DNA from: an uncultured Lentisphaeraceae bacterium | GTDB lineage: Bacteria; Verrucomicrobiota; Kiritimatiellia; RFP12; UBA1067 | Assembly: GCA_964557205.1 (NCBI GenBank) | Contig: CAZKZI010000001.1 | Location: 29,284-93,283, forward strand | DNA length: 64,000 bases | Direction of reading: 5' to 3' | Shown: piece by piece, positions 1 to 55,400 of the stretch | Position numbering within the stretch: the first letter of the stretch is position 1 | Layout of the letters: each line of letters opens with the position of its first letter | Program-made: the position numbers and the translations under genes | Notes under the pieces: model-generated | What the model saw: the letters and a program-made list of their open reading frames with translations, nothing else | What the model was told of the DNA's origin: nothing | The model's database searches: none

Positions 1-272
1 ATAGTATGGTTAAACACTTCAGGGAGCTGAAAGAAGGGCGAGTCTCGCGGGACGGGAATTCTTCAAGATAAAGCCCGGTCGCCTCTCGGAGGTTTTCAAC
101 CCCGAATTTTTATGTGGCGGCATGATTTCTGCGCTCCCCCTGCAATCCCAGTGCATACTTATGCAATCCTAAGGCATATCCTTTGGTTTGGTTCCAGGCC
201 TATTTTCGTGGTAGAATGGTATCATAGATGTAGAAGGAATGCATGTTAATCCGTCTTGAAGGGTTGTAAACA

Positions 273-1274
273 ATGAAGAACATCGGGATCGCTGCCGGGG
301 TAATGATTTCTGTTGGCTGTGCGCAGGCGGATGCGGTTGTTTCGTCAGTGTTCCTCGGCGACCCGCTGCCGACGCCGTCGTGCCACGCCTCGACGATAAC
401 GGAGACTTCGGGGGGGATGGTGGCGGCGTGGTTCGGCGGCACACATGAGCAGCACCCGGATGTGGGCATCTGGCTGGCGCGGCAGGAGAGCGGAAAATGG
501 CTGCCCGCGCGGGAGGTTGCGAACGGTGTGCAGCCGGACGGCACGCGTCACCCTTGCTGGAACCCGGTGCTCTATACGGCCAAGGACGGGACGCTGGTGT
601 TGTTCTATAAGGTCGGGGCGGACTGCACATGGTGGTGGGGCGAGCGCATGGTCTCGCGCGACGGGGGTAAAACCTGGTCCGTGCCGGTCAAGCTGCCGAA
701 CGGCATGATCGGCCCGATCAAGAACAAGCCGCTGGCTTTGCCGGACGGGCGTGTGCTGTGCGGAGCCAGCACCGAGTTCGGTCCGTGGCTGGTGCATGTC
801 GAGACGACCGACGACGCGGGTGCGGTCTGGTCGCGCACGGGAAACCTGCACGGGCGGCACATCAACGCGATCCAGCCGAGTTTTCTGACACATCCGGATA
901 ACGTGCTGCAGATGGTCGGGCGGACAAAGGAGAAGCGGGTCTTCTCGATCTTCTCCAGTGACGGTGGCGCGACATGGGGCGAGATGACACTGCTGGAGGT
1001 GCCGAACCCGTGTTCGGGGACCGATGCGGTGACGCTCAAGGACGGACGGCACCTGCTGGTCTGCAATCCGGTGGAGAAGGGGCGTTCGCCGCTGTCGGTA
1101 ATGCTCTCCGGCGACGGCGTCAAGTGGCGCGAGGCGCTGGTTCTCGAAGACGAGCCCGGCAAGGAGTTCTCTTATCCGGCAGTGATTCAGGCGGCGGACG
1201 GCAAAGTGCATGTGACGTACACATGGAAGCGGAAAAACGTGCGGCATGTTGTGATCGATACGACGAAACTATAA
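273..1274 (+). CDS. BNR/Asp-box repeat exo-alpha-sialidase-like glycoside hydrolase (GH33-like), probable lipoprotein
   Basis: 333-aa ORF. N-terminal signal with Cys (ISVGCAQ). Asp-box motifs SRDGGKTWS and SSDGGATWG. Overall sialidase beta-propeller-like composition. Antisense ORF 345..1247 judged spurious. Confidence 0.75.
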   Translation: MKNIGIAAGVMISVGCAQADAVVSSVFLGDPLPTPSCHASTITETSGGMVAAWFGGTHEQHPDVGIWLARQESGKWLPAREVANGVQPDGTRHPCWNPVLYTAKDGTLVLFYKVGADCTWWWGERMVSRDGGKTWSVPVKLPNGMIGPIKNKPLALPDGRVLCGASTEFGPWLVHVETTDDAGAVWSRTGNLHGRHINAIQPSFLTHPDNVLQMVGRTKEKRVFSIFSSDGGATWGEMTLLEVPNPCSGTDAVTLKDGRHLLVCNPVEKGRSPLSVMLSGDGVKWREALVLEDEPGKEFSYPAVIQAADGKVHVTYTWKRKNVRHVVIDTTKL

Positions 1275-1299
1275 TGCGATACACGAAAGGAAAAGCCAA

Positions 1300-2529
1300 A
1301 TGACGACAAAACGAGCAATCAGCATGTTGATCATGTGTTTAGCGGGTATTGTGGCTGTGGGCGCACTGGCTGATACCCCGGAAATTACGGGCGTGACAGT
1401 GCGGCAGCGCTGGCCGTGGAGCCGGCTGGTGGACATTGATTATGTCCTGACCTGTAACCCGACGCAGCGGGTGGACATTGCTGTACATGCCTATAACGGG
1501 TCGGAGAAACTCTTTTTTCCCTTAGATGCTTTATCCGGTGATCTGATGAATATCGGACAGGGTGCCAAGCGCATCGTCTTGGATCCCGTTAAAACCGGCT
1601 ACACGAACGAAGCGCTCACGCAGTTCAGCGTGGAACTGACACCGACTGATCCGCCCGTTTACATGATCGTGGATCTGACCAGGGATGCGGGGACGGAAGG
1701 CCAGATCGAGTATGTGTACGAAGCGGATTTGACGAACGGCTTCTGGGGTTCCTGGGAGAGAAACCCGATTACAAATGAGACTGGAGAGGCCCTTGTCGAG
1801 TCTGTCATCTGGACCGGCGTGACGACCAATGCTATCTATAAGACGGACAAGCTCGTTCTGAGACGCGCGTCGGCGGGCTCCTTCACAATGGGAGATCCAC
1901 CCGGGACTTTGACGGAGGTAGATGAAGATTTCTACGTGAGCGTGTTCGCTGTGACTCAAGCGCAATGGGACAAGGTCACGGGAGGGAGCAGTACAGCCGT
2001 TACGCCTAAAGCGGCTTTGTCTTACAATGCCCTTCGGGGTGCGACGACAAACTCGCCCGCTGTTGACTGGCCCGAGACAGAATCCTATGTCGCGCCTGCC
2101 AGTTTCATAGCCAGGCTCCGAAATAAGACCGGTATCACCGACTTCGACCTGCCCACGCAAACGCAGTGGGAGTATGCGTGCCGGGCGGAAACAACAACCT
2201 ACTACAACGATGGCATAGAGGGGGACATCACAACCTACACCAACCGATTGGACAATCTGGCGTGGTGGAAAAACAACAGTGGTGGCGGTATAAAGGAAGT
2301 CGGGCTGAAGACCGCGAATGCCTGGGGGTTGTACGATATGCACGGCAATGTCTGGGAGTGGTGTCTGGATTGGTTTGATATATCATGCACGCAGCGCTAT
2401 ACGCGGGGCGGGGACAGACGTGTCGACTTCGATATCTGCCGTTCAGGGTTTAATGACAACGGTGGCGATCCGTCTGTCGGACAAAGCGGTTTCGGCTTGC
2501 GTCTTGTCCGAACACTGGAATGCCCTTGA
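1300..2529 (+). CDS. secreted protein with C-terminal formylglycine-generating-enzyme (FGE/SUMF1-type) domain and uncharacterised N-terminal domain
   Basis: 409 aa with signal peptide. Hallmark FGE-sulfatase motifs FTMGDPPG...VSVFAVTQAQW and GLYDMHGNVWEWCLDWF in the C-terminal half. N-terminal ~180 aa are not recognisable. Confidence 0.7.
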   Translation: MTTKRAISMLIMCLAGIVAVGALADTPEITGVTVRQRWPWSRLVDIDYVLTCNPTQRVDIAVHAYNGSEKLFFPLDALSGDLMNIGQGAKRIVLDPVKTGYTNEALTQFSVELTPTDPPVYMIVDLTRDAGTEGQIEYVYEADLTNGFWGSWERNPITNETGEALVESVIWTGVTTNAIYKTDKLVLRRASAGSFTMGDPPGTLTEVDEDFYVSVFAVTQAQWDKVTGGSSTAVTPKAALSYNALRGATTNSPAVDWPETESYVAPASFIARLRNKTGITDFDLPTQTQWEYACRAETTTYYNDGIEGDITTYTNRLDNLAWWKNNSGGGIKEVGLKTANAWGLYDMHGNVWEWCLDWFDISCTQRYTRGGDRRVDFDICRSGFNDNGGDPSVGQSGFGLRLVRTLECP

Positions 2530-2540
2530 CCTGAGCGGTT

Positions 2541-3977
2541 TTGGGGATGAATAAAAAAACCATAATGGCCTTGGGGGTTTTGTCGGCTGGGGTTTTATGG
2601 GCTAGTCCGCTCATTCACTCTGATTGTGCGAACGACCGGAAGGCGCCCTTGGTCTGGGACCGTCCGAAGGAGTTTGATCCCGGCAAGCCGCATCTCGGCC
2701 TGCCGGTACTGACAGGCGCAACCCATCGTGTGCTTTACGATCCGCTCCCGAGCGAGGCCGACAAGACCGGACGCTACGAAAGTCTGCGGCACGGCACTTA
2801 TAACCACCATCAAAGTTTTGTCCGCTACAAGGATCGGGTGATCGTACTGTGGACCAATCACATGCGGGATGAAAACGGTCCGGGAATGCGTTTTTTGGCG
2901 AAGACCGGACGACTGGCGGCAGACGAGTCGGATATCGATTGGGGCAAAGACGAGACGCTTTCGGAAATCGGCCCGTCCGCGCATCCGGTGCGGCGGCGCC
3001 GAAACAAGGACGACACTTCAGTGATCGACGGGATTTTCGTCAACTCGGGGCTGGAAGTTCTGGAAGACGGACGCCTGTTCGTCTCGACAAGTCTGAAAGT
3101 CTGCGACGGCTGGGCGGATGACATTCAATATCATGTGGGGCAGGGACTGCGGGAACCGATACCGGATGAGCATTACGAGGCTTATAAAACTGTTGGGCCT
3201 GACCGTAAGCGGGGGTTCCGCTGGGACATCTACTGGTACGTGGGGCGTTACTTGCAGCAGGTGGAGATGGATGATGCGGGCAGGATCAAGCCTGCGGGAC
3301 AGATGTATGTAGTCGGAAAACCGCCGAAGACTGAAATGCGCCTGACCCCGACAATCACCAAAAAACTCTTGCCGCTGAATGAACCCTACCGCAGCGCGGT
3401 GCCATACGGGAAGGCGCCTGAAGAGTTGCGGAGCGCCTATTCCACGGGGCGGAGGGTTGCATCCTGCGGGCGTACGCCGCGATACGCGCCCGGCACATTC
3501 AAACTGGCGGAAAACGGTAAAAACGGCTTGTTCCACAACACGGAGTTTGTTCGTCCGGACGGCATGTGGGTCGCGGTGCGGGACAATCTGCTCGATACGG
3601 AAATATATTACGCGGCAGTTAAAGGCGACAAAGACGGGTTTTATCCGCCGGGGCGCAGAACCAACATGTTCGGAGGCGTCATGCCGGTGGCAGGCGAGCT
3701 GCCGAGCGGCGCGGTCTGGCTGATCGGCAGCAACCTGAACCGCACGGAGGCCTTCATCACGCTCGCAAAGGACGGTATTCATTTCAACAAAACGTGGTCG
3801 CTGCTTTCGCTGAATCTAAAGGCCACGCTAGGCATCTGCAAGGGTAGCGGCGGCGCGCAGTATTTCAGACAGATCACTATCGGACCGAACATCTGGGTCG
3901 TGTACAGTATTGCCAAGGAACAGGTTGGGATCACGAAGATTCCAGTCGCGTTGCTGGAACAAAAATTGAAGGAATGA
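2541..3977 (+). CDS. secreted hypothetical protein, tandem paralog A (unknown fold; possibly a glycan-active beta-propeller)
   Basis: 478 aa with signal peptide. Long collinear identity with the next ORF, e.g. HRVLYDPLPSEADKTGRYESLRHGTYNHHQ and GPNIWVVYSIAKEQVGITKIPVALLEQKLK in both. No family recognised by eye. Confidence 0.6.
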   Translation: MGMNKKTIMALGVLSAGVLWASPLIHSDCANDRKAPLVWDRPKEFDPGKPHLGLPVLTGATHRVLYDPLPSEADKTGRYESLRHGTYNHHQSFVRYKDRVIVLWTNHMRDENGPGMRFLAKTGRLAADESDIDWGKDETLSEIGPSAHPVRRRRNKDDTSVIDGIFVNSGLEVLEDGRLFVSTSLKVCDGWADDIQYHVGQGLREPIPDEHYEAYKTVGPDRKRGFRWDIYWYVGRYLQQVEMDDAGRIKPAGQMYVVGKPPKTEMRLTPTITKKLLPLNEPYRSAVPYGKAPEELRSAYSTGRRVASCGRTPRYAPGTFKLAENGKNGLFHNTEFVRPDGMWVAVRDNLLDTEIYYAAVKGDKDGFYPPGRRTNMFGGVMPVAGELPSGAVWLIGSNLNRTEAFITLAKDGIHFNKTWSLLSLNLKATLGICKGSGGAQYFRQITIGPNIWVVYSIAKEQVGITKIPVALLEQKLKE

Positions 3978-4004
3978 GGAAATCCGCGGGGAAGGTAAGG
4001 ACGT

Positions 4005-5408
4005 ATGATGTTTTTCAGAAGTGGTCTTGCGGCGCTGGCCGCCGCGCTGGTTTGCGCGGAGGAGCCCCCGTTGGTCTGGAAGCAGCCTGCCGGGTTCGAT
4101 CCCGGTAAGGCGGGACTGGGCCTGCCGGTGCTTACGGGGACGACCCATCGGGTGCTTTACGATCCGCTTCCGAGCGAGGCCGACAAGACCGGGCGCTATG
4201 AAAGTCTGCGCCACGGGACGTATAACCACCATCAAACGTTTTTCCGTTATAACAACCGTGTGATTATACGGTGGACCAACCACATGCAGGATGAAAATGG
4301 CCCCGGACAACGCTGCCTGGCGAAGACCGGACGGCTGACGGAAGACGGATCGGATATTGACTGGGGCGGGGACGAGACACTCTCCGAGCTGTGTCCGCCC
4401 CCGCATCCTGTACGCCGCCGCAGGAGCGCGGACACCAATTCCGTGATAGACGGGTTATTCGCCACAGCAGGACTTCATATACTGGAAGACGGGCAGATGT
4501 TTGTTTCTGTCCAGGTGAAACTCTGTGAGGGCTGGACGGATGACCTGAAATATCACACCGGCCTTTCGGAGCCGGTTCCGGACGAACACTACAATCCGGG
4601 ACCCGACCGGAAGCGGGGTTTCAAGTGGGATATTTACTGGAAGATGGGTAATTACCTGCGGCAGGTCGAGATGGATGATACGGGCAGGATCATGCCGATT
4701 GGACCGATGTACATCATAGGAAAGCCGCCGCTTACAACGGAGTTGCAGATCACCCCGACGATCGCCAAAAAAATATTGCCTATGAACGAGCCCTACCGCA
4801 GCGCGGTGCCTTATGAGACCGCGCCTAAAGAGATCAGGGACGCCTATTCCAAGGGGCCAAGGGTTCCGTCTTGCAGACGTTCGCTAAAGTATGCACCGGG
4901 CACGTCTCTGCTGGCCGAGAACGGTAAGAACGGGTTGATGCACAGTACAGAGTTTGTCCGTCCGGACGGAAAATGGGTTGCGGTGCGGGACAACCTGCTG
5001 GATCTCAGGATTTATTACGCGGCGGTCAAGGACAAGCAAGACGAGGTTTATCCGCCGGGGCGCAGGACCAACCTTTTTGGGGCCGTGATGCCGGTCGCGG
5101 GAGAATTGCCGAGCGGCGCGGTCTGGCTGATCGGCAGCAATCTGAGCCGTACAGAGGCTTACATCACGCTCGCCAAGGACGGTATTCATTTCGAAAAAAC
5201 ATGGTCGCTGCTATCTTCACAGAATCTCAGAGCCATGCATGGCATCAGTAAGGCATCGTCCGGCATCTGCAAAGGCGGTGACGGCGCGCAGTATTTTCAT
5301 TCAGTGACTATCGGACCGAACATCTGGGTCGTGTACAGTATTGCCAAGGAACAGGTGGGGATCACGAAGATTCCGGTCGCGTTGTTGGAACAGAAGCTGA
5401 AAAAGTAA
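4005..5408 (+). CDS. secreted hypothetical protein, tandem paralog B
   Basis: 467 aa, roughly 65-70% identical to the 2541..3977 product over its full length. Signal peptide MMFFRSGLAALAAALVCA. Confidence 0.6.
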   Translation: MMFFRSGLAALAAALVCAEEPPLVWKQPAGFDPGKAGLGLPVLTGTTHRVLYDPLPSEADKTGRYESLRHGTYNHHQTFFRYNNRVIIRWTNHMQDENGPGQRCLAKTGRLTEDGSDIDWGGDETLSELCPPPHPVRRRRSADTNSVIDGLFATAGLHILEDGQMFVSVQVKLCEGWTDDLKYHTGLSEPVPDEHYNPGPDRKRGFKWDIYWKMGNYLRQVEMDDTGRIMPIGPMYIIGKPPLTTELQITPTIAKKILPMNEPYRSAVPYETAPKEIRDAYSKGPRVPSCRRSLKYAPGTSLLAENGKNGLMHSTEFVRPDGKWVAVRDNLLDLRIYYAAVKDKQDEVYPPGRRTNLFGAVMPVAGELPSGAVWLIGSNLSRTEAYITLAKDGIHFEKTWSLLSSQNLRAMHGISKASSGICKGGDGAQYFHSVTIGPNIWVVYSIAKEQVGITKIPVALLEQKLKK

Positions 5409-5416
5409 GGAGAAAA

Positions 5417-6331
5417 ATGTTGCCGAAACCTTTAAGGGGGGTGGTGCCGCCGATGGTCACCCCGTTGCTGGATAACGCTACGCTGGACGTTAAAGGTCTG
5501 GAGCGTCTGGTGGAGCATATGCTGGAGGGGCATATACACGGCCTGTTCCTGCTGGGGACGACGGGCGAGGCGCCGGACCTGAGTTACGAGCTGCGGCACG
5601 AACTGGTCAAAAGGGTCTGCAAGCTGGTGAAGGGACGCGTGCCGGTGCTGGTGGGCGTGACCGACACGGTATTCAAGGAAAGCCTGCGTCTGGCGGTCAC
5701 GGCCGCGGAGGCGGGGGCGGTGGCGGCGGTGGCCGCGCCGCCGTACTATTTCGCGCCGGGACAGCCGGAACTGGTCGAGTATTACAACCATCTGGCCGAC
5801 AGCCTGCCCTTGCCGCTGTTCCTCTACAACATGCCCTCGCACACGAAGGTCATGATCGACCCGTACACGGTCAAGGCGCTTGCGGGAAACGCGAATATCG
5901 TCGGCATCAAAGACAGCTCGGCGAATATCGTCTATTTCAACGCCGTGCGGCATATCCTGCGGGAACGCGCGGACTTCTCGGTGTTGCTGGGGCCGGAAGA
6001 GGCTTTGGGCGAAGTGGTGCTGATGGGCGCGCACGGCGGGGTGTGCGGCGGCGCAAACATCTTTCCACAGTTGTTCGTGGACGTTTACAATGCCGCGGTC
6101 GCCAGGGATGTGCGGCTGGTGCTGGAACTGCAGGAACGCGTCATGACCGTCAGCAGCTCGCTTTACGGGGTCGGCAGGCACATGTCTAGCTTCTTGAAAG
6201 GTGTGAAGTGCTCGCTGGATCTGATGGGTATATGCAGCGATTACATGGCGGATCCTTTCAGCCGCTTTCGCGAGGAGGAGCGCTCCATCATACGCGAGCG
6301 CCTGATCGCGCTGGGCGTGAAGGTGAAGTGA
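5417..6331 (+). CDS. dihydrodipicolinate synthase/N-acetylneuraminate lyase family (class I aldolase) protein, NanA-like paralog
   Basis: 304 aa. DapA/NanA-family motifs (GLFLLGTTGE, IVGIKDSS Schiff-base lysine context). A separate bona fide dapA lies at 61575..62444. Confidence 0.8.
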   Translation: MLPKPLRGVVPPMVTPLLDNATLDVKGLERLVEHMLEGHIHGLFLLGTTGEAPDLSYELRHELVKRVCKLVKGRVPVLVGVTDTVFKESLRLAVTAAEAGAVAAVAAPPYYFAPGQPELVEYYNHLADSLPLPLFLYNMPSHTKVMIDPYTVKALAGNANIVGIKDSSANIVYFNAVRHILRERADFSVLLGPEEALGEVVLMGAHGGVCGGANIFPQLFVDVYNAAVARDVRLVLELQERVMTVSSSLYGVGRHMSSFLKGVKCSLDLMGICSDYMADPFSRFREEERSIIRERLIALGVKVK

Positions 6332-6440
6332 ATAGTTAAGAGTGATAATTCTCATACGGGTTGAGAGTAGAGAGTTGAATGTTGGAAGGTGAGAGTTCAG
6401 GAAAACGTTCAACGTTCAACGTTGATTGACAGGGAGGGGT

Positions 6441-7928
6441 ATGCCGGGGTTGGCGCTGGTTGATCTTTTGGTGTTTGCGGCCTATATGGCGGGGGTGATC
6501 CTGTTCGGGTGCTCCTTCTATTTCCGCAAGGGGGCGCGGCAGGCGGCGACTTTCACGTCGGGGGCTGGCAGGCTGCCAGCCTGGGCGGTGGGGATGTCGA
6601 TCTTCGCGACTTTCGTGAGCAGCATCAGCTTTCTGGGGCTGCCGGCCAAGGCTTACACCGGCAACTGGAACGCCTTTGTCTTCAGCCTGACGATACCGGT
6701 GGCGGCTTGGATGGCGGCGCGCTTTTTCGTGCCGCTTTACCGGGGTATCGGCAGCGTTTCGGCCTACAGCTATCTGGAGACGCGTTTCGGGCCGTGGGCG
6801 CGGGTGTACGCTTCGCTCTGCTATCTGGTGACGCAGGTGGCGCGGATGGGCACGATCATGTATCTGCTGGCGTTGCCGCTGAACGCGCTGTTGGGGTGGC
6901 CGGTTCCGCTGATCATTCTGGTGACGGGCGTGGGGGTGCTGCTGTATTCAACGATGGGCGGCATCCAGGCTGTAATCTGGACGGATGCAGTGCAGGGGAT
7001 CGTACTGATCGCGGGGACGTTGCTGTGTCTGATGGTGCTGCTTTTCTCCTTGCCGGGCGGGCCGGGGCAGGCGTGGGAAATCGCGGTGGCGGCGGACAAG
7101 TTCAGCCTTGGGAGCTGGAGCCTGACGGATTGGGGCAGCGAGACCTTCTGGGTCTGTTTCATATACGGCGTGTTCATGAACCTGCAGAACTACGGTATCG
7201 ACCAGAACTACATCCAGCGTTACATGACCGCGCGGAATCAGCGCGACGCGGTGCGCTCGACGCTGTTCGGATCGTTGCTGTACGTGCCGGTCTCGTTCCT
7301 CTTTTTCGCGATCGGCACCGCGCTTTTCGCCTATTATCAGGCGCGTCCGGAGCTTCTGCCGCTTGAGGTGGCGGCGCGGCCGGACCAGGTTTTGCCGTTC
7401 TTTATCGTGCGGGGCTTGCCGAAAGGGGTTACGGGCTTGCTGATAGCGGCGATTTTCGCGGCAGGCATGAGCACGATCTCGACAAGCTTGAACAGCGGCA
7501 CAACGATCTTGTTGGAGGATTACTACAAGCGCTATGTCAACCGTGACGCGGATGACGCGCAGTCGCTGCGGGTGTTGCGTGTGGGAACGCTGGTGTTGGC
7601 GGCGTTGGGCGTGGGGTGCGCGTTGGCGATGATGCGTGTGCGCAGCGCCTTGGACGCCTGGTGGGCTTTGTCATCGGTTTTCAGCGGCGGTATGCTGGGA
7701 TTGTTCCTGTTGGGCTACTTCTCGAAAAAAGCGCGTAATTTCGAAGCGGCCATCGGCGCCGTGTTGGGGATCATGGTGATCGCCTGGATCAGCCTGATGC
7801 AGAAAATGTGGCCGCTGCCGGTCAAGATCCACACGAATCTGTCGATCGTGTTGGGCACGACGGTGATTTTTGTGTCGGGGTTCGCGCTGGCGGCGTTGCG
7901 CGGCAGGTGTCACGCAAGAAGGCAGTAG
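6441..7928 (+). CDS. sodium:solute symporter (SSS family) transporter
   Basis: ~495 aa polytopic membrane protein with SSS-family topology and composition. ATG at 6441 is preceded by GGGAGGGG RBS. The track start 6426 is a TTG. Confidence 0.8.
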   Translation: MPGLALVDLLVFAAYMAGVILFGCSFYFRKGARQAATFTSGAGRLPAWAVGMSIFATFVSSISFLGLPAKAYTGNWNAFVFSLTIPVAAWMAARFFVPLYRGIGSVSAYSYLETRFGPWARVYASLCYLVTQVARMGTIMYLLALPLNALLGWPVPLIILVTGVGVLLYSTMGGIQAVIWTDAVQGIVLIAGTLLCLMVLLFSLPGGPGQAWEIAVAADKFSLGSWSLTDWGSETFWVCFIYGVFMNLQNYGIDQNYIQRYMTARNQRDAVRSTLFGSLLYVPVSFLFFAIGTALFAYYQARPELLPLEVAARPDQVLPFFIVRGLPKGVTGLLIAAIFAAGMSTISTSLNSGTTILLEDYYKRYVNRDADDAQSLRVLRVGTLVLAALGVGCALAMMRVRSALDAWWALSSVFSGGMLGLFLLGYFSKKARNFEAAIGAVLGIMVIAWISLMQKMWPLPVKIHTNLSIVLGTTVIFVSGFALAALRGRCHARRQ

Positions 7929-8056
7929 AGATTAGTAGCCTCCCACCCGGGATTCCGGAAATGAACGAGGTGGCAACGGTTATCAACGAATTAACCGAAT
8001 GAGACGAATTATAATTAGCGTAATTCGGTGATAAAACTTGAAGTTGCCGACAAGGT

Positions 8057-10060
8057 GTGGGTATGATGAAAAAAAGAGTGTTGGCGTGCGCGGTGTTGGC
8101 GTGTGCGGTCGGTTTGTGTGCGCAGGAGGTCGGCAAGCAGAGGGTAGGCGAGCTGAAGCGTATGCCGTACAACAACCCTGGGCTGGAGACGGATTTGGGC
8201 GTTGGGCTTTGGGCATGGCCGCTACCTATGGATTACGACGGCGACGGCGATCTGGACCTGGTGGTGTCTTGTCCTGACAAGCCGTACAACGGAACCTATT
8301 ATTTTGAGAATCCGACCGGAACTACCGCGCGCAAGAAAGGGTTTTTAGGACTGGGAGGATCCGGGGCCATGCCGGTCTTCAAAGCGGGCCGGAGAATCGG
8401 GCGCGGTTTCACGAATATCCAGTTGTCGCAGGCGGGAGGGCGGACGGTGGTCACGGTTCCCGGGCAGATGTTTCCGGATTTCGCGAAATCGGTGTTTGAC
8501 CAGGGTGTGGCGATTGCAGGTGTCAAATCCAATATCCATTCCAACAACGTGCGTGGGAATGTCTGGCGGTTGGTGGATTACGATGGCGACGGCGTTCAAG
8601 ACATCGTGGTCGGTGTCGGCGACTGGAAGGCATACGGCTGGGATGACGGGTACGATGCTGAAGGCAACTGGACGCGCGGTCCGTTGCACGGCCTCGTTTA
8701 TTGGCTCCGCAACACCGGCACGGACGGGGAGCCGGTATATGCGGCGGCAAAACAGGTGCTCGCGGACGGCAAGCCGGTGGACGTTTACGGCAATCCGATG
8801 CCCATGTTCGAAGATTGGGACGATGACGGCGACCTCGACCTGATCTGCGGCGAGTTCATCGATGGTTTCACCTGTTTCGATAATGTCGGCACAAGGACGC
8901 GGCCGAGCTATGCGGCGGGGCAACGGGTGCATAGTAAGAGCGGCGCTCCGCTGGTGATGGACTTGCAGATGATCACGCCCACGGCCATCGACTGGGACGG
9001 CGACGGCGATTTAGACATAATCTGCGGTGACGAAGACGGGCGCGTGGCGTTCATCGAGAATACCGGAAGGCTGGACGCGCGGCATGTGCCGATATTCCGT
9101 GATCCGCGCTATTTCCGGCAGGAGGCCGCCGACATAAAGTTCGGCGCGCTGGTCACGCCGGTCGGCGTGGATTGGGACGGCGACGGCGACTGGGATTTTA
9201 TCTGCGGCAGCACAGCCGGGTATATCGCTTTCATCGAGAACTTGAGCGGCGCCGGGGTGGCGCATCCGAAATGGGCAGAGCCGCGACGGCTGGAGGCGGC
9301 GGGAGAGCCGATTCGCATATCGGCAGGGCCGAACGGAAGTATCCAGGGACCGTGCGAGGCCAAGTGGGGATACACGACCGTGAGCGTTGCTGACTGGGAC
9401 GGCGACGGTCTACCCGATCTGTTGGTGAACTCGATTTTAGGCAAGATCGTTTGGCACCGCAATGTTGGAACTCGGCATTCGCCGCGTCTGTCCGAGGCGC
9501 AGACCGTGGAGATCGAGTGGGAGGGCGCGCAACCGGAACTCGCGTGGGGGTGGATGCGTCCCGAGGGCAAGGCGCTGTTGACGCAGTGGCGCACCACGCC
9601 GGTGGCAGTGGACTGGAACAAAGACGGGCTGGTGGATTTGGTGATGCTGGATCATGAAGGATATCTGGCCTTTTTCGAGCGGGCGGAACGCGGCGGACGA
9701 CGTGTGCTGCTGCATCCGAAGAGAATTTTCCGCAACGCTAAAGGCGAACCTTTGCGCTTTAGCAGCGGACGGGCCGGCGGCAGCGGCCGCCGCAAGATTT
9801 GTATCGCGGATTGGAACGGTGACGGGAGGCTTGACATCCTGATCAACTCGAAAAACGTCGAGTTCTGGCGTCAGTTGGATGCTAAGGACGGACTCTGCCG
9901 CTTCGAGAACATGGGGTCGGTTTCGATGACCGTGCTGGCCGGCCACACCACCAGTCCGACCATCGTTGATTTCGACGCGGACGGGATTCCCGAAATGGCG
10001 ATCGGCGCGGAAGATGGTTATTTGTACTATCTCCATAACCCGCGTACGCCAGAAAAATAG
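8057..10060 (+). CDS. FG-GAP/VCBS repeat beta-propeller protein, secreted
   Basis: 667 aa. Signal peptide. At least 8 repeats of DxDGDGxxD(L/I)(V/I) type (DYDGDGDLDLVV, DWDDDGDLDLICG, DWDGDGDLDIICGDEDG, DWDGDGDWDFICG, DWNGDGRLDILIN, DFDADGIPEMAIGAEDG). Confidence 0.75.
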   Translation: MGMMKKRVLACAVLACAVGLCAQEVGKQRVGELKRMPYNNPGLETDLGVGLWAWPLPMDYDGDGDLDLVVSCPDKPYNGTYYFENPTGTTARKKGFLGLGGSGAMPVFKAGRRIGRGFTNIQLSQAGGRTVVTVPGQMFPDFAKSVFDQGVAIAGVKSNIHSNNVRGNVWRLVDYDGDGVQDIVVGVGDWKAYGWDDGYDAEGNWTRGPLHGLVYWLRNTGTDGEPVYAAAKQVLADGKPVDVYGNPMPMFEDWDDDGDLDLICGEFIDGFTCFDNVGTRTRPSYAAGQRVHSKSGAPLVMDLQMITPTAIDWDGDGDLDIICGDEDGRVAFIENTGRLDARHVPIFRDPRYFRQEAADIKFGALVTPVGVDWDGDGDWDFICGSTAGYIAFIENLSGAGVAHPKWAEPRRLEAAGEPIRISAGPNGSIQGPCEAKWGYTTVSVADWDGDGLPDLLVNSILGKIVWHRNVGTRHSPRLSEAQTVEIEWEGAQPELAWGWMRPEGKALLTQWRTTPVAVDWNKDGLVDLVMLDHEGYLAFFERAERGGRRVLLHPKRIFRNAKGEPLRFSSGRAGGSGRRKICIADWNGDGRLDILINSKNVEFWRQLDAKDGLCRFENMGSVSMTVLAGHTTSPTIVDFDADGIPEMAIGAEDGYLYYLHNPRTPEK

Positions 10061-10074
10061 TTAAAGGCACGGGT

Positions 10075-10101
10075 TGACCGCGTATAAACGGTGTGATAAT
10101 C
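10075..10101 (+). promoter_or_regulatory. candidate sigma70 promoter of rpmH-rnpA-yidD-yidC (TTGACC -35; extended -10 TGtGATAAT)
   Basis: TTGACC at 10075-10080 and TGtGATAAT at 10093-10101 (15-nt spacer). Sits ~45 nt upstream of rpmH ATG, which has an AGGAG RBS. Confidence 0.4.
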
Positions 10102-10145
10102 TTTAAAGTCAATTTTTCAATGAATTGAAGTAGGAGAACAAAGCG

Positions 10146-10283
10146 ATGAAAATGACGTGGCAACCATCGAAGATCAAGCGTAAACGTAAGATCGGGTTTC
10201 GTGCCCGCATGGCCACAAGAGGGGGCCGCGCGATCATCAAGGCCCGTCGCCGCAAGGGACGTGTGCGTTTGACGCAGGTTTAA
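10146..10283 (+). CDS. rpmH: 50S ribosomal protein L34
   Basis: Translates to [45 protein letters not shown] (45 aa). Not in ORF track because under 60 aa. AGGAG RBS. Confidence 0.9.
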
Positions 10284-10678
10284 TGGAAATGCCGGGGGGC
10301 GGCATGTTCGGATCGGATGAGATTGGACGCGGTCCCGTGAACAAGTCTGGCGTATGTCGGCTTGAATCTTCAAAGTACAAAGGCGTTTTTGCCGAAAGCA
10401 GGAAAGTTTACGGGCGGACTCTGGTGATATGGTTTGCGCGTAAGGAGGATGCCGGTCGCAAGGCCGGCGTTGTTGTTTCAAAGCGGGTATTTCGCAGGGC
10501 GGTTGACCGTAATCGCGCCAAGCGGTTGATGCGGGAGGCTTTCCGGCAGAAGCGGCATCTGCTGACCGGTGATGTTGATCTGATCATGGTGGCGCGCAAG
10601 GGTATTGCCGGGCGACGTTGTGTAGAGGTGGCATTTGACCTTGAGGCTGTCTTCCGGCGCGCGGGGCTGATGTCGTGA
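10283..10678 (+). CDS. rnpA: ribonuclease P protein component
   Basis: RnpA motifs (KVYGRTLVIWFARKE..., RNRAKRLMREAFR). Immediately follows rpmH. Exact start uncertain (possibly ATG at 10304). Confidence 0.85.
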   Translation: MEMPGGGMFGSDEIGRGPVNKSGVCRLESSKYKGVFAESRKVYGRTLVIWFARKEDAGRKAGVVVSKRVFRRAVDRNRAKRLMREAFRQKRHLLTGDVDLIMVARKGIAGRRCVEVAFDLEAVFRRAGLMS

Positions 10679-10699
10679 GCGCGGGGCAGTGGTCGAACG

Positions 10700-11032
10700 G
10701 TGACGGAGGCGCAGATGAAAAGGATCGTGTTAGCCGTCAGCGCACTGGTTAAGGGCGTGTTGATTTTTTTAGTCAGGGCATACCAGATGGTGCTTGCGCC
10801 GCATTTGGGGCATTGTTGCCGCTTTGAGCCATCATGTTCGGCATATTGCATTGAGGCTCTGCAAAAACACGGCGTTATCAAAGGCGGATGGCTTGCTGTG
10901 CGCAGGGTGCTGCGTTGCCGTCCGTTCGGCGCCTGCGGGCCAGACCCTGTGCCGCCGGTAAAAGACCGCGGCCAAAAAAACCGAGACTGCGCCGGAAGTG
11001 ACGCAAAGTGCCGCACCGAAAAAACAGAATAA
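10700..11032 (+). CDS. yidD: membrane protein insertion efficiency factor YidD
   Basis: Conserved YidD core LIFLVRAYQMVLAPHLGHCCRFEPSCSAYCIEALQKHGVIKGGWLAVRRVLRCRPF. C-terminal extension. Confidence 0.8.
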   Translation: MTEAQMKRIVLAVSALVKGVLIFLVRAYQMVLAPHLGHCCRFEPSCSAYCIEALQKHGVIKGGWLAVRRVLRCRPFGACGPDPVPPVKDRGQKNRDCAGSDAKCRTEKTE

Positions 11033-11051
11033 TAATTTTGGGATTAGCAGC

Positions 11052-12869
11052 ATGAATAAACAAGAGAGAATTTTTGCCGCCGTTTTGGGATTGGCCCTGG
11101 TGGCTTGGATGTTTTACAGCAACAAGACTGCGGCACAACGGGCAAAAGAGCGCGCGTTGGCTTCGCCGCCCGCCGCAACCGTGCAGCCCGCCGCAACCGT
11201 GCGGCCTGCCGCAACGCAGCAGGTTGAACTGAATGCCGCTGCGTCCGAGCCGCAGCAGCAGGCGTTCGAAAATATCCTTCCGCCCGCTCCTGCCGTTGCT
11301 GAACAGGTCATGGAACTCACCAGCGGCGCAATGAAGCTGGCGGTTTCTTCGCACGGGGCAGTGCTTAAAGGTGCCACGCTCAGCGGCTACAACTCGCACC
11401 CGGGGCATGCCGGGCCTGATAATCCTTCGGTGACGCTTGATTTCAGCGAGTCGCCGGGGTTGCAATTAGCGGGGGTTGTCGGCTTGGCTCCCAATGCCGC
11501 CTACGAGGTCGAAAGCGTGGCGGACGGTAAAACCGTGACGTTGAAAAGCGTTACTGGTGACGGGCTGGTCATTACCCGCACTATTGAACTTCAGGAAGAT
11601 TATTGCGTCAAGGTCACTGACACCCTGCGCAACGCTGGTGACAAGGTGCTGACGCTGGTAACCAACAGTGTGTCGGTCGGGGTGATGTCGCGTGGAGGAT
11701 CGAAGAACGACATACTCTCGGTTGACTCGCTGCCGGCCTTTGAAAAGGCTAAGACCCGCTATTGGGACAAGGACAAGGCGACCAAACAGTATTTGTCCGG
11801 CGCGGGCGGCGGTTTCGGCTGCGGTGGCAAGGCGTCTGCCCAGGGTATGCCGGAAAACATCACCTTGCCGGTAGCCGAACCGCAAAACTGGGTCGCGATT
11901 AAATCGCGATTTTTTGTAACGATTTTTTCTTCATCGGAGACCAACAGCGGTTTCGCGATACGGGTGTCGCGTGACACTTCCAAACCGTCATACACTTTAA
12001 GGAACGTTTCAGCCCGTGTGTTTTATCCTGGGCGGGTTTTGGGTCAGGGCGAAGCATTCAGCCGCGAATACTCGCTGTATGTAGGTCCGAAGAAACTGTC
12101 GCTTTTGCAGGCTATGGGCAACGGGATGGATGCCGTGATGCAGTTCGGCATGTTCACATGGTTCTGCAAGCTGCTGGTGCCGACCCTTAACTTTTTTTAC
12201 CGGGTGATACCGAGCTACGGCGTGGCGATAATTCTGCTGACTTTCCTGGTGCGCATCATATTCTGGCCCTTGACGCACCACAGCACCAAGAGCATGAAGA
12301 AGATGCAGGAGATACAGCCCAAGCTGAAAGAGTTGCAGGCCAAGCTCAAGGGCAACCCGCAGAAACTGCAGCAGGAGACGTGGGCGATATACCGTGAGAA
12401 CAAGGTCAATCCGATGTCGAGCTGTCTGCCGATGCTGATCCAGATCCCGGTGTTCATTGCCTTGTTCACGGTGCTGCGCAGCGCGGTGGAGCTACGCTAC
12501 GCGCCTTTCTTGTGGATATCCGACTTGAGCGAACCGGAAAACCTTTTCGCGGGGGTGTTGCCGATACCGCTGAACATTTTGCCGATCCTGATGTCTGGCA
12601 CCATGGCGTTGCAGAGTTACCTGACGCCTTCGGCCGGTGACCCGCAGCAGCAGAAGATGATGATGGTGATGATGCCGCTGATGATGCTGTTCATGTTTTA
12701 CAGTTTTCCGGCGGCTTTGTCACTGTACTGGACTGTCAGCCAGATCGTTTCCATAGTGCAGATGTGGATGATGCGGCGTAAGAGCGCGCAAAAGGCCGAT
12801 GCGTCTGGCATAACGGTTGAAGCGCCGATGACACGGCAACAACGGCGGCATGGCGCTCAACAAGAATGA
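11052..12869 (+). CDS. yidC: membrane protein insertase YidC
   Basis: Large periplasmic N-domain plus conserved C-terminal 5-TM core (YGVAIILLTFLVRIIFWPL..., PMLIQIPVFIALF). ATG at 11052 (MNKQERIF) chosen over track start 10998. Confidence 0.9.
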   Translation: MNKQERIFAAVLGLALVAWMFYSNKTAAQRAKERALASPPAATVQPAATVRPAATQQVELNAAASEPQQQAFENILPPAPAVAEQVMELTSGAMKLAVSSHGAVLKGATLSGYNSHPGHAGPDNPSVTLDFSESPGLQLAGVVGLAPNAAYEVESVADGKTVTLKSVTGDGLVITRTIELQEDYCVKVTDTLRNAGDKVLTLVTNSVSVGVMSRGGSKNDILSVDSLPAFEKAKTRYWDKDKATKQYLSGAGGGFGCGGKASAQGMPENITLPVAEPQNWVAIKSRFFVTIFSSSETNSGFAIRVSRDTSKPSYTLRNVSARVFYPGRVLGQGEAFSREYSLYVGPKKLSLLQAMGNGMDAVMQFGMFTWFCKLLVPTLNFFYRVIPSYGVAIILLTFLVRIIFWPLTHHSTKSMKKMQEIQPKLKELQAKLKGNPQKLQQETWAIYRENKVNPMSSCLPMLIQIPVFIALFTVLRSAVELRYAPFLWISDLSEPENLFAGVLPIPLNILPILMSGTMALQSYLTPSAGDPQQQKMMMVMMPLMMLFMFYSFPAALSLYWTVSQIVSIVQMWMMRRKSAQKADASGITVEAPMTRQQRRHGAQQE

Positions 12870-12928
12870 CGAAAGAACCATTTGGGAGATGCCGATAGCA
12901 ATGCCGCTACGCTACCAACGCGAAACGC

Positions 12929-12967: not shown

Positions 12968-14038
12968 TTAAATTGCTGCGCCGAATTTGACGCAGACGGG
13001 TCTGTACATCGCGAGCGGGTCGTGCGCGGGGGTCAGGCGCCCCGTGACCGGGTCGTAGGCGTATGACATCAGCTCGTTTGAATTCTCATGCCCCAGCAGC
13101 ACGAACTTGCCGCCCGGCATGAACTCGAAGTCACGCGGCGATTGGCCTGCCAGTTTCGAGATCGCCAGCAACGACATCCTGCCGGTCTCGGAGTCGATGT
13201 CATAGGCGGCGATGCTGTCGTGGCCGCGGTTGGAGCCGAAAAGGCGGTGTCCGTCCGGCGCGAACTTGAGTGCCGAGGCTTTGCTGTAATCTTTGAAGTC
13301 GGGCGGCAGCATGCTGACGGTCTGGATGTGAACGAAAGCGTCGCCGGTATAAATGAAAGACGAGATGGTGTTGTTAAGCTCGTGCAGGAGATAGGCTGTC
13401 TTACGGTTGGAATGAAAAACTATGTGGCGCGGGCCTGCGCCGCCGGCGCTGGTGATCGTCAGTTCCGCTTTTTCCTTCAAGCCGGAGGCACGTCCCGGAA
13501 AGTCATAAACCTTGACCCGGTCGATACCGAGGTCAACTACGCACAGGTGTCGGCTGTCCGGCGACACTTCGGCGCAATGCGTGTGCGCCTTCTGCTGTCT
13601 TTTGGGGTCGGGCCCGCTGCCGGTGTGCTGGACGGTGACAGGCGGCGTGTCGGCAATGCTGCCATCGGGATTAATTTCAAAGACGCCTGCCACAGCGTTT
13701 GTGTATTCGGCGAAAACCAGCGCCCGCTCTGCAGGATCGAGAGCCACATAGCAGGGCGGCGTGACTCCGACGGGCTTGTGGTTGATCGGTAGCAGTTTAT
13801 CGTCTTTGATGGCGTACGCGGCTACGGCTCCGTTCGTGGCGCTGGGGCCGTACTCGGCCAGACTTTGGGCAGCATAAAGAAAGGTGTTGCTCCGGTTGAG
13901 CGTCAGGTAGATGGCGTTTTGGATGCCGCTGACAACGCCGACGGGCTGGAACGTGCCTTTTTCGGCATCAGTCTCGACAATGTGGATACCCTCTTTTTTC
14001 TCGTCAGTATAACATCCCACATAGGTGATGTATTTCAT
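12968..14038 (-). CDS. pgl: 6-phosphogluconolactonase (lactonase, 7-bladed beta-propeller / 3-carboxymuconate-cycloisomerase-type)
   Basis: 356 aa. N-terminus MKYITYVGCYTDEKKEGIHIV and overall Pgl/lactonase-family pattern. Confidence 0.7.
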   Translation of the reverse strand: MKYITYVGCYTDEKKEGIHIVETDAEKGTFQPVGVVSGIQNAIYLTLNRSNTFLYAAQSLAEYGPSATNGAVAAYAIKDDKLLPINHKPVGVTPPCYVALDPAERALVFAEYTNAVAGVFEINPDGSIADTPPVTVQHTGSGPDPKRQQKAHTHCAEVSPDSRHLCVVDLGIDRVKVYDFPGRASGLKEKAELTITSAGGAGPRHIVFHSNRKTAYLLHELNNTISSFIYTGDAFVHIQTVSMLPPDFKDYSKASALKFAPDGHRLFGSNRGHDSIAAYDIDSETGRMSLLAISKLAGQSPRDFEFMPGGKFVLLGHENSNELMSYAYDPVTGRLTPAHDPLAMYRPVCVKFGAAI

Positions 14039-45663: not shown

Positions 45664-45674
45664 CGTTAGTTCCC

Positions 45675-45714
45675 TGTCTGTCAGACCTGTCAGACGCGTC
45701 CGACCTGTCAGACT
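45675..45714. repeat. tandem CAGACCTGTC-family repeats in 5' leader of the multiheme cytochrome gene
   Basis: ctgtctgtcagacctgtcagacgcgtccgacctgtcagac. Same motif family as 41912-41956, same orientation relative to the downstream (minus-strand) gene. Confidence 0.6.
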
Positions 45715-45725
45715 TTTGCGCACTC

Positions 45726-51217: not shown

Positions 51218-52363
51218 TTACGGGAGCTTGGTATTGGGTTTAACCGCATCTTGGGGCCAGGGATTCTTAGCTCCAAATACAAGCATCTGCGCACGAGTCT
51301 CGCTCACAAAAAAAGATTCGTCGATTTTTCCATCAACCTCGGTCACCCTGCTGAGATCCAGCTTTAAATGCTTTGCCAGAAAGGGGTAGGCTGCCATCCG
51401 TTTGGAAACGCCGTAATCATGCTTCTCCTCAGCAAAGTGGGCATTCTCAACTTTATCACCCGCATCGTAAAGCTCATAGACCTGCTTCACATAAGGATAT
51501 TCAACCTGCGGGGTGTTCACCGTCCAGTCATGTCCATTCGAAATCATCAGCATTGGACGTGGAGCGGCCATTGCGGCAATTTCAACATTGCTGGTTTTAT
51601 GCGTTTTGCTCCAGTGAATCGGCATACCGCTCTCGCATACACAGCCGCCAAAGAAATGGGCGGATATCTGGCAGACCGGAACACTCACCGCAATGCGAGG
51701 ATCAATCGCAGTCAGAATAAAAGTTTGTGTCCCGCCCCCTGAACAACCGGTCATTCCAATTCGCTTTGGATCGACATCCGGCAGCGTGAGCATAAAGTCC
51801 AGAACCCGAATGCTGTTCCATGTCATCAGCCTAAGAACCTCCGGTGTGTCTGCGTGTGACCAGCCAGCCTCCTTGGAATCGCCATAGCCAACCATGTCAT
51901 AAAGAAATACCGCCGCGCCCATCTTTGCCAGCACCGCGCAACGGCATTGGCGCGAATCTCGGAAACGTCCCCCATGTCCATGAGGGCAGAGAATACCGGC
52001 CAGCGAACCACTGAAATCGGCAGGACGGTAGAGAGTCCCCGTGACATAAAAACCAGGCGAACTTTGAATAGCTACGCTCTCGACAATATATCCGTTATAT
52101 GCACGCTTATTGTAAAACTGTGGCTTGAGATCAGTTCTCGCGGGAAGCTCTGTCAGCCTTGCACCTGCTAAAATGCCTGCCAATAAATTCGCCCGTCGTT
52201 TTTTCCATCCCGCCAAATCCGAGTAGGTGCTTTTAAACTCCGCGAGCTCTTTGACAGCTTCCTCCGGTGTCTGCGCATATCCCACCCGCAACTGAAGTTC
52301 ATCGGCATTGGCAGACACACAGAACAATAGTGATACAAACAAGAGAAACGTAATTTTTTTCAT
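51218..52363 (-). CDS. secreted alpha/beta-hydrolase esterase (acetyl-xylan-esterase/dienelactone-hydrolase-like)
   Basis: Signal peptide [20 protein letters not shown]. Nucleophile elbow TGCSGGG. GHGG oxyanion-like motif. GC content (~50%) lower than surrounding genome. Confidence 0.6.
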
Positions 52364-55034: not shown

Positions 55035-55400
55035 GGTATGCAACCTTTCCGGGGCAACCTCGATACGCCCGGTAGTTTTCAGACAGGGAAGAGCGCGAAG
55101 AACGGCCCTTTATGCCTGTACGTTACCTTTTCCCCACCTGCACCTGCAGACAGTCCAAAACTAATCCTTTAAAGCGCCAAGATTATCGCCTTTGCCAATT
55201 ACCGGCAAGTGTAATTAATTGGATGTGGGACAAAAAAGTGACTTTACCTTGTAAAGCGGTTCATGCGGCCTTCTTACGAAGAGTCGCCCATCTTTTTTAT
55301 GACTGGTAATGCCTCAGTTATTGGCAGGTAATTACTTCTAATTCCGTAGATCAATAATTATGTGATGAAAAAAATAAGGCTCCTCGGCAGAATTTGTGGG

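Follow-up and report, generated by a model that had tools for sequence, protein, structure and literature searches.

Gene content of the locus

The stretch analysed here, called the window in its full length of 64,000 nucleotides, stems from an uncultured Lentisphaeraceae bacterium (contig CAZKZI010000001.1 of assembly GCA_964557205.1), and the element in question is a gene cluster at its beginning that resembles a locus for sialic-acid utilisation. Seven genes are located on the + strand between positions 273 and 10060 and are separated by intergenic gaps of 8–128 bp. Because the gaps are this short and a promoter and terminator scan of positions 1-10400 gave no convincing element, the arrangement is consistent with a single operon of seven genes. 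No family was matched in an Rfam scan of positions 1-12000. The features are as follows:

273–1274, + strand: BNR_2 six-bladed propeller, 333 aa, secreted (Pfam BNR_2 1.9e-86; signal- or lipobox-like N-terminus)
1300–2529, + strand: FGE-sulfatase-fold protein, 409 aa, secreted (PF03781 6.5e-26, residues 192-404)
2541–3977, + strand: GH143-like β-propeller, paralogue A, 478 aa, secreted (73% identity to paralogue B)
4005–5408, + strand: GH143-like β-propeller, paralogue B, 467 aa, secreted (AlphaFold model with pLDDT 94)
5417–6331, + strand: DHDPS/NAL class I aldolase, 304 aa, cytoplasmic (PF00701 8e-56)
6405–6425, no strand: AACGTTC in three tandem copies, spacer between the aldolase and transporter genes (direct sequence reading)
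6426–7928, + strand: sodium:solute symporter of the SSF family (PF00474 4e-44; TIGR00813 230 bits)
8057–10060, + strand: FG-GAP/VCBS β-propeller, 667 aa, secreted (FG-GAP_3 2e-29)

Based on the translations, five of the seven operon proteins have hydrophobic signal- or lipobox-like N-termini, and the DHDPS-family protein has none. An earlier description of this DNA (henceforth the sequence-only reading) had listed four gene types, i.e., BNR, FGE-domain, DHDPS-family, and sodium:solute symporter (SSS) genes, and all four were recovered on the + strand with the boundaries it gave. The list was nonetheless incomplete, as it omitted the tandem paralogues at 2541-5408, to which 37% of its own interval belongs, as well as the FG-GAP gene at 8057-10060, which is co-conserved with the cluster. 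It was correct in reporting no kinase, epimerase, or regulator gene in or beside the cluster. Likewise, neither nanK/nanE nor AGE plus a ROK kinase nor a regulator was found in window positions 1-12900, which sets the locus apart from a canonical nan regulon.

Aldolase and symporter

The aldolase carries the Schiff-base set K165, Y137, and Y111 as well as the GTTGE motif, all of which are invariant in the alignment and place it in the DHDPS/NAL class I superfamily. Its score on the dapA model TIGR00674 was 187 bits, under the cut-off of 206, and the column corresponding to Arg138 (E. coli DapA numbering) is occupied by His in the window aldolase and by Leu in some orthologues. The window's own dapA at 61575-62444 keeps this Arg and reaches 345 bits on the same model. 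A second DapA was thus ruled out by the missing Arg138 together with the separate true dapA. Identity as NanA was ruled out by the scores on the NanA equivalogs TIGR00683 and NF003164, 92.7 bits (cut-off 382) and 116.6 bits (cut-off 281). Hence, the claim of the sequence-only reading that the enzyme differs from housekeeping dapA was borne out, and the enzyme did not group with DapA; its label "NanA-like" was imprecise, as DapA and NanA are equally distant from the protein, with identities of 24-26% (26% for E. coli NanA).

The closest solved relative was PDB 4XKY, which aligned over the full length at 57% identity and likewise has His at the Arg138 position; the next PDB matches were DapA and YagE proteins. 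Since DapA needs the Arg138 equivalent, which is His here, and since a true DapA is encoded separately in the window genome, the name under which 4XKY was deposited is probably wrong for its subfamily. A literature search for "4XKY" retrieved nothing.

Relatives of the aldolase were collected from one genome per GTDB species, yielding at least 554 stretches, and the gene context was analysed for the best 80. The aldolases of these 80 loci, which are spread over Kiritimatiellota, Verrucomicrobiota, Lentisphaerota, Planctomycetota, and Bacteroidota, show 54-92% identity. Because identity is so high across phyla, the orthologous group would fit a single conserved and specific function. From the gene contexts described below, the enzyme is predicted to be a pyruvate-lyase acting on Kdo (3-deoxy-D-manno-octulosonate) and/or on Dha (3-deoxy-D-lyxo-heptulosarate).

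The symporter scored 230 bits on TIGR00813 (cut-off 184), and its best solved relative was the sialic-acid transporter SiaT of Proteus mirabilis (5NV9, 1.2e-78). In SiaT, Arg135 reportedly binds the carboxylate, and Thr58, Phe78, and Gln82 form a pocket for N-acetylneuraminic acid (Neu5Ac) (Wahlgren et al. 2018). Residues R135, S60, A339, and S342 were conserved in 49 of 49 aldolase-linked orthologues and the Na+-site residues were invariant or conservatively replaced, which assigns the protein to the SSF/SiaT clade. The pocket positions were replaced in the window symporter and in all 49 orthologues (T58 by F or Y; F78 by A or P; Q82 by S, A, or L). The residue check that the sequence-only reading had recommended therefore gave a split result: Arg135, Ser60, and the Na+ sites are kept, and the three pocket residues are not. 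Because the carboxylate Arg is kept but Thr58, Phe78, and Gln82 are replaced, the substrate is very probably a sialic-acid-like carboxylate other than Neu5Ac itself.

Aldolase and symporter form a conserved pair. Of the 69 loci that extend far enough downstream, 48 have a symporter orthologue that starts within 400 bp of the aldolase on the same strand, and such an orthologue occurs anywhere in the locus in 57 of 80; in six loci, a transporter of the major facilitator superfamily (MFS) stands in its place. The co-conservation of neighbours, on which the sequence-only reading had made its proposal depend, is thus strong for the transporter. The symporter open reading frame (ORF) is listed from TTG 6426, and ATG 6441, behind GGGAGGGG, is the likelier start, giving 495 aa. 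The spacer between the two genes measures 94 bp and contains the triple AACGTTC repeat (AAAACGTTCAACGTTCAACGTTGA, 6405-6425) without an Rfam match; judged by its sequence, the repeat is possibly an operator or another protein-binding site.

Secreted propellers and accessory proteins

Neither of the tandem paralogues A and B had a Pfam or NCBIfam match. The close members of their family number about 116 and are found in Kiritimatiellae, Verrucomicrobiota, and Lentisphaeria; a few of them show faint BNR_2 matches. The family is small, as only 56 of 1.84 billion cluster representatives belong to it at E<=1e-30. When the family profile was compared to all PDB sequences, the sole significant match was to residues 316-406 of BT1020 (E 2.6e-4), with the common motif GPQY…WV-YS--KE…IP. 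The paralogues carry the fold and the motif of GH143 and are thus related to its founder in structure as well as in sequence, at only 15-17% identity to BT1020. The N-terminus of BT1020 is the GH143 Dha hydrolase, which acts with GH142 to remove arabinofuranose-Dha (Araf-Dha) of chain D in rhamnogalacturonan II (RG-II) (PMC13501991). By analogy, paralogues A and B are predicted to be Kdo/Dha ketoside hydrolases, and the GH143-related family, for which there is no Pfam model, would be a new hydrolase family. Some members bear the accessory domains Laminin_G_3, DUF1080, or FGE, and in L006/L007, a GH78 rhamnosidase gene is followed after 24 bp by the gene of a family member, with DHDPS and SSF genes nearby.

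The 333-aa BNR_2 protein matched solved sialidases weakly (best E 1.7e-5). It is 47% identical (E 1e-80) to residues 918-1252 of a 1541-aa GH78 and BNR_2 fusion protein in one of the related loci (L080). Invariant in its family are H38, R217, R271, E292, and Y301, with H38 at the position taken in sialidases by the RIP-motif Arg, the first of the arginine triad. Of the features of GH33 exo-sialidases, the BNR_2 domain and one Asp-box were seen in the sequence, and the RIP position is occupied by His. Orthologues adjoin the aldolase in 10-13 loci, covering all five phyla. In an hhalign comparison, this family and the GH143-like family matched weakly (probability 36%) and over the last blades only, which is why the two are regarded as distinct. 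The catalytic subunit of the lipopolysaccharide (LPS) Kdo hydrolase KdhAB is sialidase-like (PMC3573668), and BT1013 consists of a GH78 rhamnosidase and a C-terminal Kdo hydrolase that removes rhamnose-Kdo (Rha-Kdo) of RG-II chain C (PMC13501991). The BNR_2 protein is accordingly predicted to be an exo-hydrolase, similar to a Kdo hydrolase, that acts on an ulosonic acid in ketosidic linkage.

The FGE-like protein (1300-2529) consists of a conserved N-terminal domain of about 190 aa without any model match and the FGE domain; its NCBIfam matches are all far under the cut-offs. In comparison with human FGE, only GNVWEW aligned, and the catalytic segment R-G-G-S-x-x-C-x-x-x-x-C was represented by a single Cys; the catalytic Cu-binding cysteines of the human enzyme are C336 and C341. 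An alignment of 40 family members showed no conserved Cys pair, and the alignment to solved FGEs ended at residue 362, before the catalytic segment. Relatives with the 409-aa architecture number more than 7500 (E<=1e-10), and there are several per Kiritimatiellia contig. Public records name these relatives "formylglycine-generating enzyme family protein" despite the missing Cys pair. FGE-domain proteins occur in 6-7 of the aldolase loci, and most of these proteins are FGE–BNR_2 fusions. The fusion partner of the domain is BNR_2 in L009, L025, and L047 and a GH143-like propeller in P0112; within the GH143-like family, it takes the same accessory position as the lectin-like Laminin_G_3 and DUF1080. 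A role as sulfatase maturase was rejected on account of the missing Cys pair and the lack of any sulfatase (PF00884) among the 27 long window ORFs scanned, the smaller ORFs being only partly covered. Judged by its fusions, the protein is probably an accessory, glycan-binding (lectin-like) partner of the propellers.

The FG-GAP protein (8057-10060) likewise belongs to a family of more than 7500 relatives; identity among the proteins listed is 60-73%, and six of those are fused to BNR_2. Orthologues with 47-71% identity adjoin the aldolase in eight loci, including Parabacteroides and Planctomycetota. No sequence relative was found in the PDB, and the AlphaFold model (pLDDT 89) matched only generic propellers in Foldseek (Tc toxin, CRTAC1, DDB1). 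As a co-conserved member of the module, the protein may bind glycan or perform a further catalytic step.

Gene neighbourhoods of the aldolase in relatives

The module recurs in the nearest relatives, where its middle part varies. In L009, a BNR–FGE–BNR fusion is followed by aldolase, SSS, BNR_2, and FG-GAP; in L010, BNR_2 and a 438-aa BNR-like protein precede aldolase, SSS, and FG-GAP; and L005 comprises two such modules together with three paralogous FGE genes and one gene homologous to the tandem paralogues. BNR_2, GH143, or an FGE–BNR propeller lies within 10 kb of the aldolase in at least 19 of the 80 loci, again across all five phyla. Fusions of the "Rosetta-stone" type connect FGE to BNR_2 and to the GH143-like family, and they also connect FG-GAP to BNR_2. 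NanK, nanE, AGE, and ROK kinase genes were absent from the recurrent and the individually annotated neighbours of the 80 aldolase loci.

Several Bacteroidota loci place the aldolase among enzymes for RG-II. In the rumen Prevotellaceae L066 (3321-12412) and L068 (2673-12432), a BT1020 orthologue, GH78, aldolase, and SSS follow each other with overlapping or abutting gene boundaries. This orthologue (GH143 and GH142) scored 1696 bits to 5MQR over the whole length and comprises about 1400 aa, including an N-terminal extension of about 300 aa. Both operons continue after the SSS gene with a conserved protein of about 380-430 aa. Downstream of the aldolase in L080 come a GH142-like gene and the gene of the 1541-aa protein, which contains GH78, BNR_2, and a second BNR module. 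L059 encodes GH106, a SASA-type esterase, DUF5703 (possibly GH139), GH2, aldolase, and an MFS transporter, a set similar to that of an RG-II polysaccharide utilisation locus (PUL). Three of its families match the consecutive BT0986, BT0985, and BT0984 (reviewed in PMC13501991).

Genes for the further metabolism of a pentose or of Kdo also recur. The fucI equivalog was found in or near seven loci; it is the direct neighbour of the aldolase gene in L038 and L047 of Parabacteroides (7-bp gaps) as well as in L014 of Kiritimatiellia. In L047, the order is fucI, aldolase, SusC, SusD, FGE/BNR_2 fusion, ribulokinase (AraB equivalog), and SSS, a gene set that would cover the whole path by which a Kdo-glycan is converted to pyruvate and ribulose phosphate. 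An FGGY kinase gene is directly upstream of the aldolase in L037. In four Planctomycetota loci, kdsB (CMP-Kdo synthetase, above the TIGR00466 cut-off) is two to three genes away from the aldolase, a linkage that would fit salvage of imported Kdo. A YhcH/NanQ-like anomerase gene follows the aldolase in L038 and L030.

Further families recur around the aldolase. Clostripain-like Peptidase_C11 genes are situated within a few kb of the pair in L018, L020, L024, L026, L056, and L063 (Planctomycetota) and in L039, L052, and L054 (Bacteroidota). URO-D-like genes recur in ten aldolase loci, and an 899-aa protein without a Pfam match is encoded in 13 Planctomycetota loci.

Proposed function

Kdo, with eight carbons, and Dha, with seven, are relatives of sialic acid that occur in RG-II, in the walls and scales of green algae, and in bacterial LPS and capsules. 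Kdo aldolase cleaves Kdo to D-arabinose and pyruvate, and FucI also isomerises D-arabinose. Taking domain content, residues, and gene contexts together, we consider it rather probable that the operon at 273-10060 serves the scavenging of 3-deoxy-2-ulosonic acids, i.e., Kdo and/or Dha, by release, uptake, and aldol cleavage, and that it targets neither Neu5Ac nor sulfated sialoglycans. As for the substrate, Kdo is the leading candidate, though short of an even chance; Kdo together with Dha and Dha only rank equally, each at slightly under half the weight of Kdo, and another substrate is slightly less probable still.

According to this model, the five exported proteins would act outside the cytoplasm, where the BNR_2 protein and the two GH143-like propellers would hydrolyse the ketosidic bond and free the acid. 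The FGE-fold protein and the FG-GAP propeller would assist, probably by binding the glycan, which is the weakest part of the model. The SiaT-like Na+ symporter would then import the free acid, recognising the carboxylate via the conserved Arg, and the cytoplasmic class I aldolase would cleave it to pyruvate and an aldose, i.e., D-arabinose in the case of Kdo or a four-carbon uronic aldehyde in the case of Dha. D-arabinose could enter the pentose-phosphate pathway via L-fucose/D-arabinose isomerase and ribulokinase, whose genes lie beside the aldolase in relatives and are absent from the window. As the aldolase product would not be N-acetylmannosamine (ManNAc), nanK and nanE would be dispensable.

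The sequence-only reading had proposed a variant nonulosonic or sugar-acid pathway. Of this, the sialic-acid-like sequence of release, import, and lyase steps in a non-canonical nan arrangement stands, and the gene contexts favour C8 and C7 ulosonic acids (Kdo, Dha) over nonulosonic ones.

Kdo uptake by a transporter of sialic acid has a precedent in NanT, which imports Kdo, and the same 2025 paper cites Kdo aldolase (EC 4.1.2.23) only via enzymology from 1966-1990 (PMC12199768). In the searchable literature, we found no gene assigned to EC 4.1.2.23, no transporter or lyase gene for the catabolism of Kdo or Dha, and no described Kdo catabolic cluster or Kiritimatiellae sialidase locus. We tentatively propose, at somewhat below even confidence, that the catabolic route missing so far for free Kdo and/or Dha consists of the 4XKY-type aldolase and the SiaT-like symporter, which would give EC 4.1.2.23 a gene, and that in Kiritimatiellae this route is fed by GH143-related hydrolases with FGE-fold and FG-GAP partners, for which no part in the degradation of glycans has been described.

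Several observations weigh against Kdo and Dha as substrates or loosen the link between the parts of the operon. The linkage of fucI and ribulokinase genes to the aldolase could reflect the L-fucose and L-arabinose of the same polysaccharide, and the loci with kdsB belong to closely related genomes and thus represent few independent events. The window itself has neither fucI nor a pentulose kinase nor a regulator gene. Members of the GH143-like family seldom adjoin the aldolase and do so only in the window, its sister contig, and L005; because the distant homologues in L002 and L003 stand in unrelated contexts, the family is not universally tied to the aldolase. The Kdo-hydrolase link of the 333-aa protein depends on the architecture that the L080 fusion shares with BT1013, from which the orthology of that fusion to BT1013 is itself deduced, and the substrate assignments across the whole orthologous group draw on fold, context, and analogy. 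Finally, Bacteroides thetaiotaomicron is reported in a 2026 preprint to secrete free D-Kdo on RG-II, and Kdo still counts there among the secreted end products, its consumers being unconfirmed (10.64898/2026.03.13.711244). This species nevertheless carries the orthologue of 4XKY. In the Bacteroides locus closest to 4XKY (L065), the aldolase–SSS pair stands alone beside a hybrid two-component system (HTCS) regulator and unrelated transporters, with no glycosidase nearby, and is uninformative as to the substrate. The free D-Kdo in RG-II cultures and the isolated position of the pair in the closest Bacteroides loci would favour Dha as the substrate, or poor induction, in that species.

If the proposed route holds, it would explain how gut Bacteroidota and environmental bacteria of the Planctomycetes–Verrucomicrobia–Chlamydiae (PVC) group use ulosonic acids from RG-II, algal walls, and bacterial necromass. 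Kdo and Dha are present in every plant primary wall (RG-II) and in green-algal coverings, and Kdo in nearly every Gram-negative envelope. The aldolase–symporter pair is a concrete candidate for a Kdo/Dha route, including in Bacteroidota of the human gut and the rumen. Three uncharacterised families, i.e., the GH143-like, the Cys-less FGE-fold, and the FG-GAP propeller proteins, are fused to sialidase-like propellers in relatives and are for this reason likely to be new parts of the glycan-degrading machinery.

Alternative explanations

Two other explanations carry the same low probability. The first is a variant locus for Neu5Ac, Kdn, legionaminic acid, or pseudaminic acid, with the BNR proteins as sialidases, the symporter as a SiaT orthologue, a divergent NanA, and the genes for ManNAc elsewhere. 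It would account for the BNR_2 domain and the sialidase-like folds, for SiaT as the best solved relative of the transporter, for the NanQ-like anomerase in two related loci, for the SASA-type esterase in L059 (sialate O-acetylesterase family), and for a GlcNAc 2-epimerase-family gene beside the distant GH143-like homologue in L002. It is nonetheless improbable, since the aldolase falls far short of the NanA cut-offs, nanK, nanE, AGE, and ROK kinase genes are lacking in the window and among the annotated neighbours of the 80 loci, Thr58, Phe78, and Gln82 of SiaT are replaced in every orthologue compared, and the 333-aa family has His at the first triad-Arg position. In addition, the Bacteroidales neighbours are enzymes for RG-II chains C and D and not for mucin. 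B. thetaiotaomicron is not known to catabolise Neu5Ac, yet it has an orthologue.

The second assigns the pair to an unrelated carboxylate, such as 2-keto-3-deoxygluconate (KDG), 2-keto-3-deoxy-L-fuconate or -rhamnonate, or a hydroxyproline-derived compound; the enzyme might then be a dehydratase or deaminase, and the propellers would merely reflect a general glycan-degrading neighbourhood. The DHDPS family does include KDG/KDF aldolases, KdgD dehydratases, and Pyr4H2C deaminase, and the PDB matches after 4XKY are DapA and YagE proteins. The L-fucose/D-arabinose locus of Campylobacter jejuni also includes a DHDPS-family enzyme (PMC6946681). The solitary pair in L065 and the recurrence of Peptidase_C11-like genes beside the pair in two phyla point the same way. 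Against this, no dehydrogenase, lactonase, or dehydratase of a non-phosphorylative pathway accompanies the pair among its annotated neighbours, propellers of the BNR_2, GH143, or FGE–BNR type lie close to the aldolase in at least 19 of the 80 loci and in five phyla, gene boundaries overlap in operons with the BT1020 orthologue and GH78, and the transporter is closest to a sialic-acid carrier. We thus judge this assignment to be unlikely as well.

The scavenging of sulfated sialoglycans with the FGE-domain protein maturing sulfatases, also put forward in the sequence-only reading, has in its favour the PF03781 domain, the public annotation of relatives, and the generally large sulfatase repertoires of Kiritimatiellia, but is highly improbable and was abandoned, as the protein lacks the catalytic Cys pair, which its family does not conserve, its alignment to solved FGEs stops short of the catalytic segment, it is exported and has many paralogues per genome, the domain is fused to glycosidase-like propellers, and the 27 long window ORFs scanned include no sulfatase.

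Other features of the window

The genes downstream of the operon are rnpA, yidD, and yidC. On the 3.1-kb sister contig (L001), the C-terminal end of an IS110-type transposase is encoded at 2-346, about 865 bp upstream of the BNR_2 start, and the window start falls within the non-coding stretch separating the IS110-type transposase from the BNR_2 gene. GC skew of the window is positive up to about 14 kb and then negative; the sign changes where the genes flip from + to − (convergent at about 13 kb, just past rnpA-yidD-yidC), and the skew may simply track the coding strand. Elsewhere, the window encodes a 7-bladed lactonase (12968-14038), a 928-aa multihaem cytochrome c (42937-45723), a CE15-like glucuronoyl esterase (51218-52363), and a GH29 α-L-fucosidase (53571-55043). 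The remaining genes are housekeeping genes (SecY, EF-G, MurJ, type II secretion ATPases, GatA/B, ETF).

Comparison with known systems

With formylglycine-generating enzyme (SUMF1) and the PF03781 members that are not FGEs (PvdO, GldK/PorK, C-domain of EgtB), the window protein has in common the FGE/C-type-lectin-like fold and GNVWEW. It differs from them in lacking the Cu-binding Cys pair, in its extra conserved N-domain, in being exported, in its massive paralogy in Kiritimatiellia, and in its frequent fusion to BNR domains.

The subfamily signature YNMP-x-H-T-K, GPEE, and GGAN-x-FP is common to the window aldolase and PDB 4XKY, whose deposited name is B. thetaiotaomicron dihydrodipicolinate synthase. 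The activity of Kdo aldolase (EC 4.1.2.23), described in 1966, corresponds to the reaction predicted here, and fucI, ribulokinase, and kdsB genes adjoin the aldolase in relatives. Enterobacteriaceae and actinobacteria were the sources of the historical enzyme, which is possibly not the same protein as the window aldolase.

The similarity to the RG-II PUL of B. thetaiotaomicron with BT1020 and BT1013 consists in the BNR_2 protein, which is close to the module of the BT1013-like fusion, and in the true BT1020 orthologues that share operons with the aldolase–symporter pair. In contrast to BT1020 and BT1013, the window has no GH142 or GH78 domain and encodes single-domain secreted proteins, in a PVC bacterium without SusC/D. 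Its FGE-like and FG-GAP proteins are absent from the descriptions of the RG-II PUL that were consulted.

The three-step logic is that of the nan/sia clusters with sialidase, SiaT/NanT, and NanA, i.e., an extracellular β-propeller ketosidase, a transporter recognising a carboxylate, and a cytoplasmic class I pyruvate lyase. The window differs from these clusters in that its lyase is no NanA orthologue, nanK, nanE, and nagAB are missing, the transporter has another pocket, and the propellers seem to be without the RIP arginine; the context in relatives is one of RG-II chains C and D together with genes for D-arabinose and Kdo, and not one of host-glycan genes. The operon is thus not a canonical sialic-acid locus but a new variant of the sialic-acid-utilisation design.

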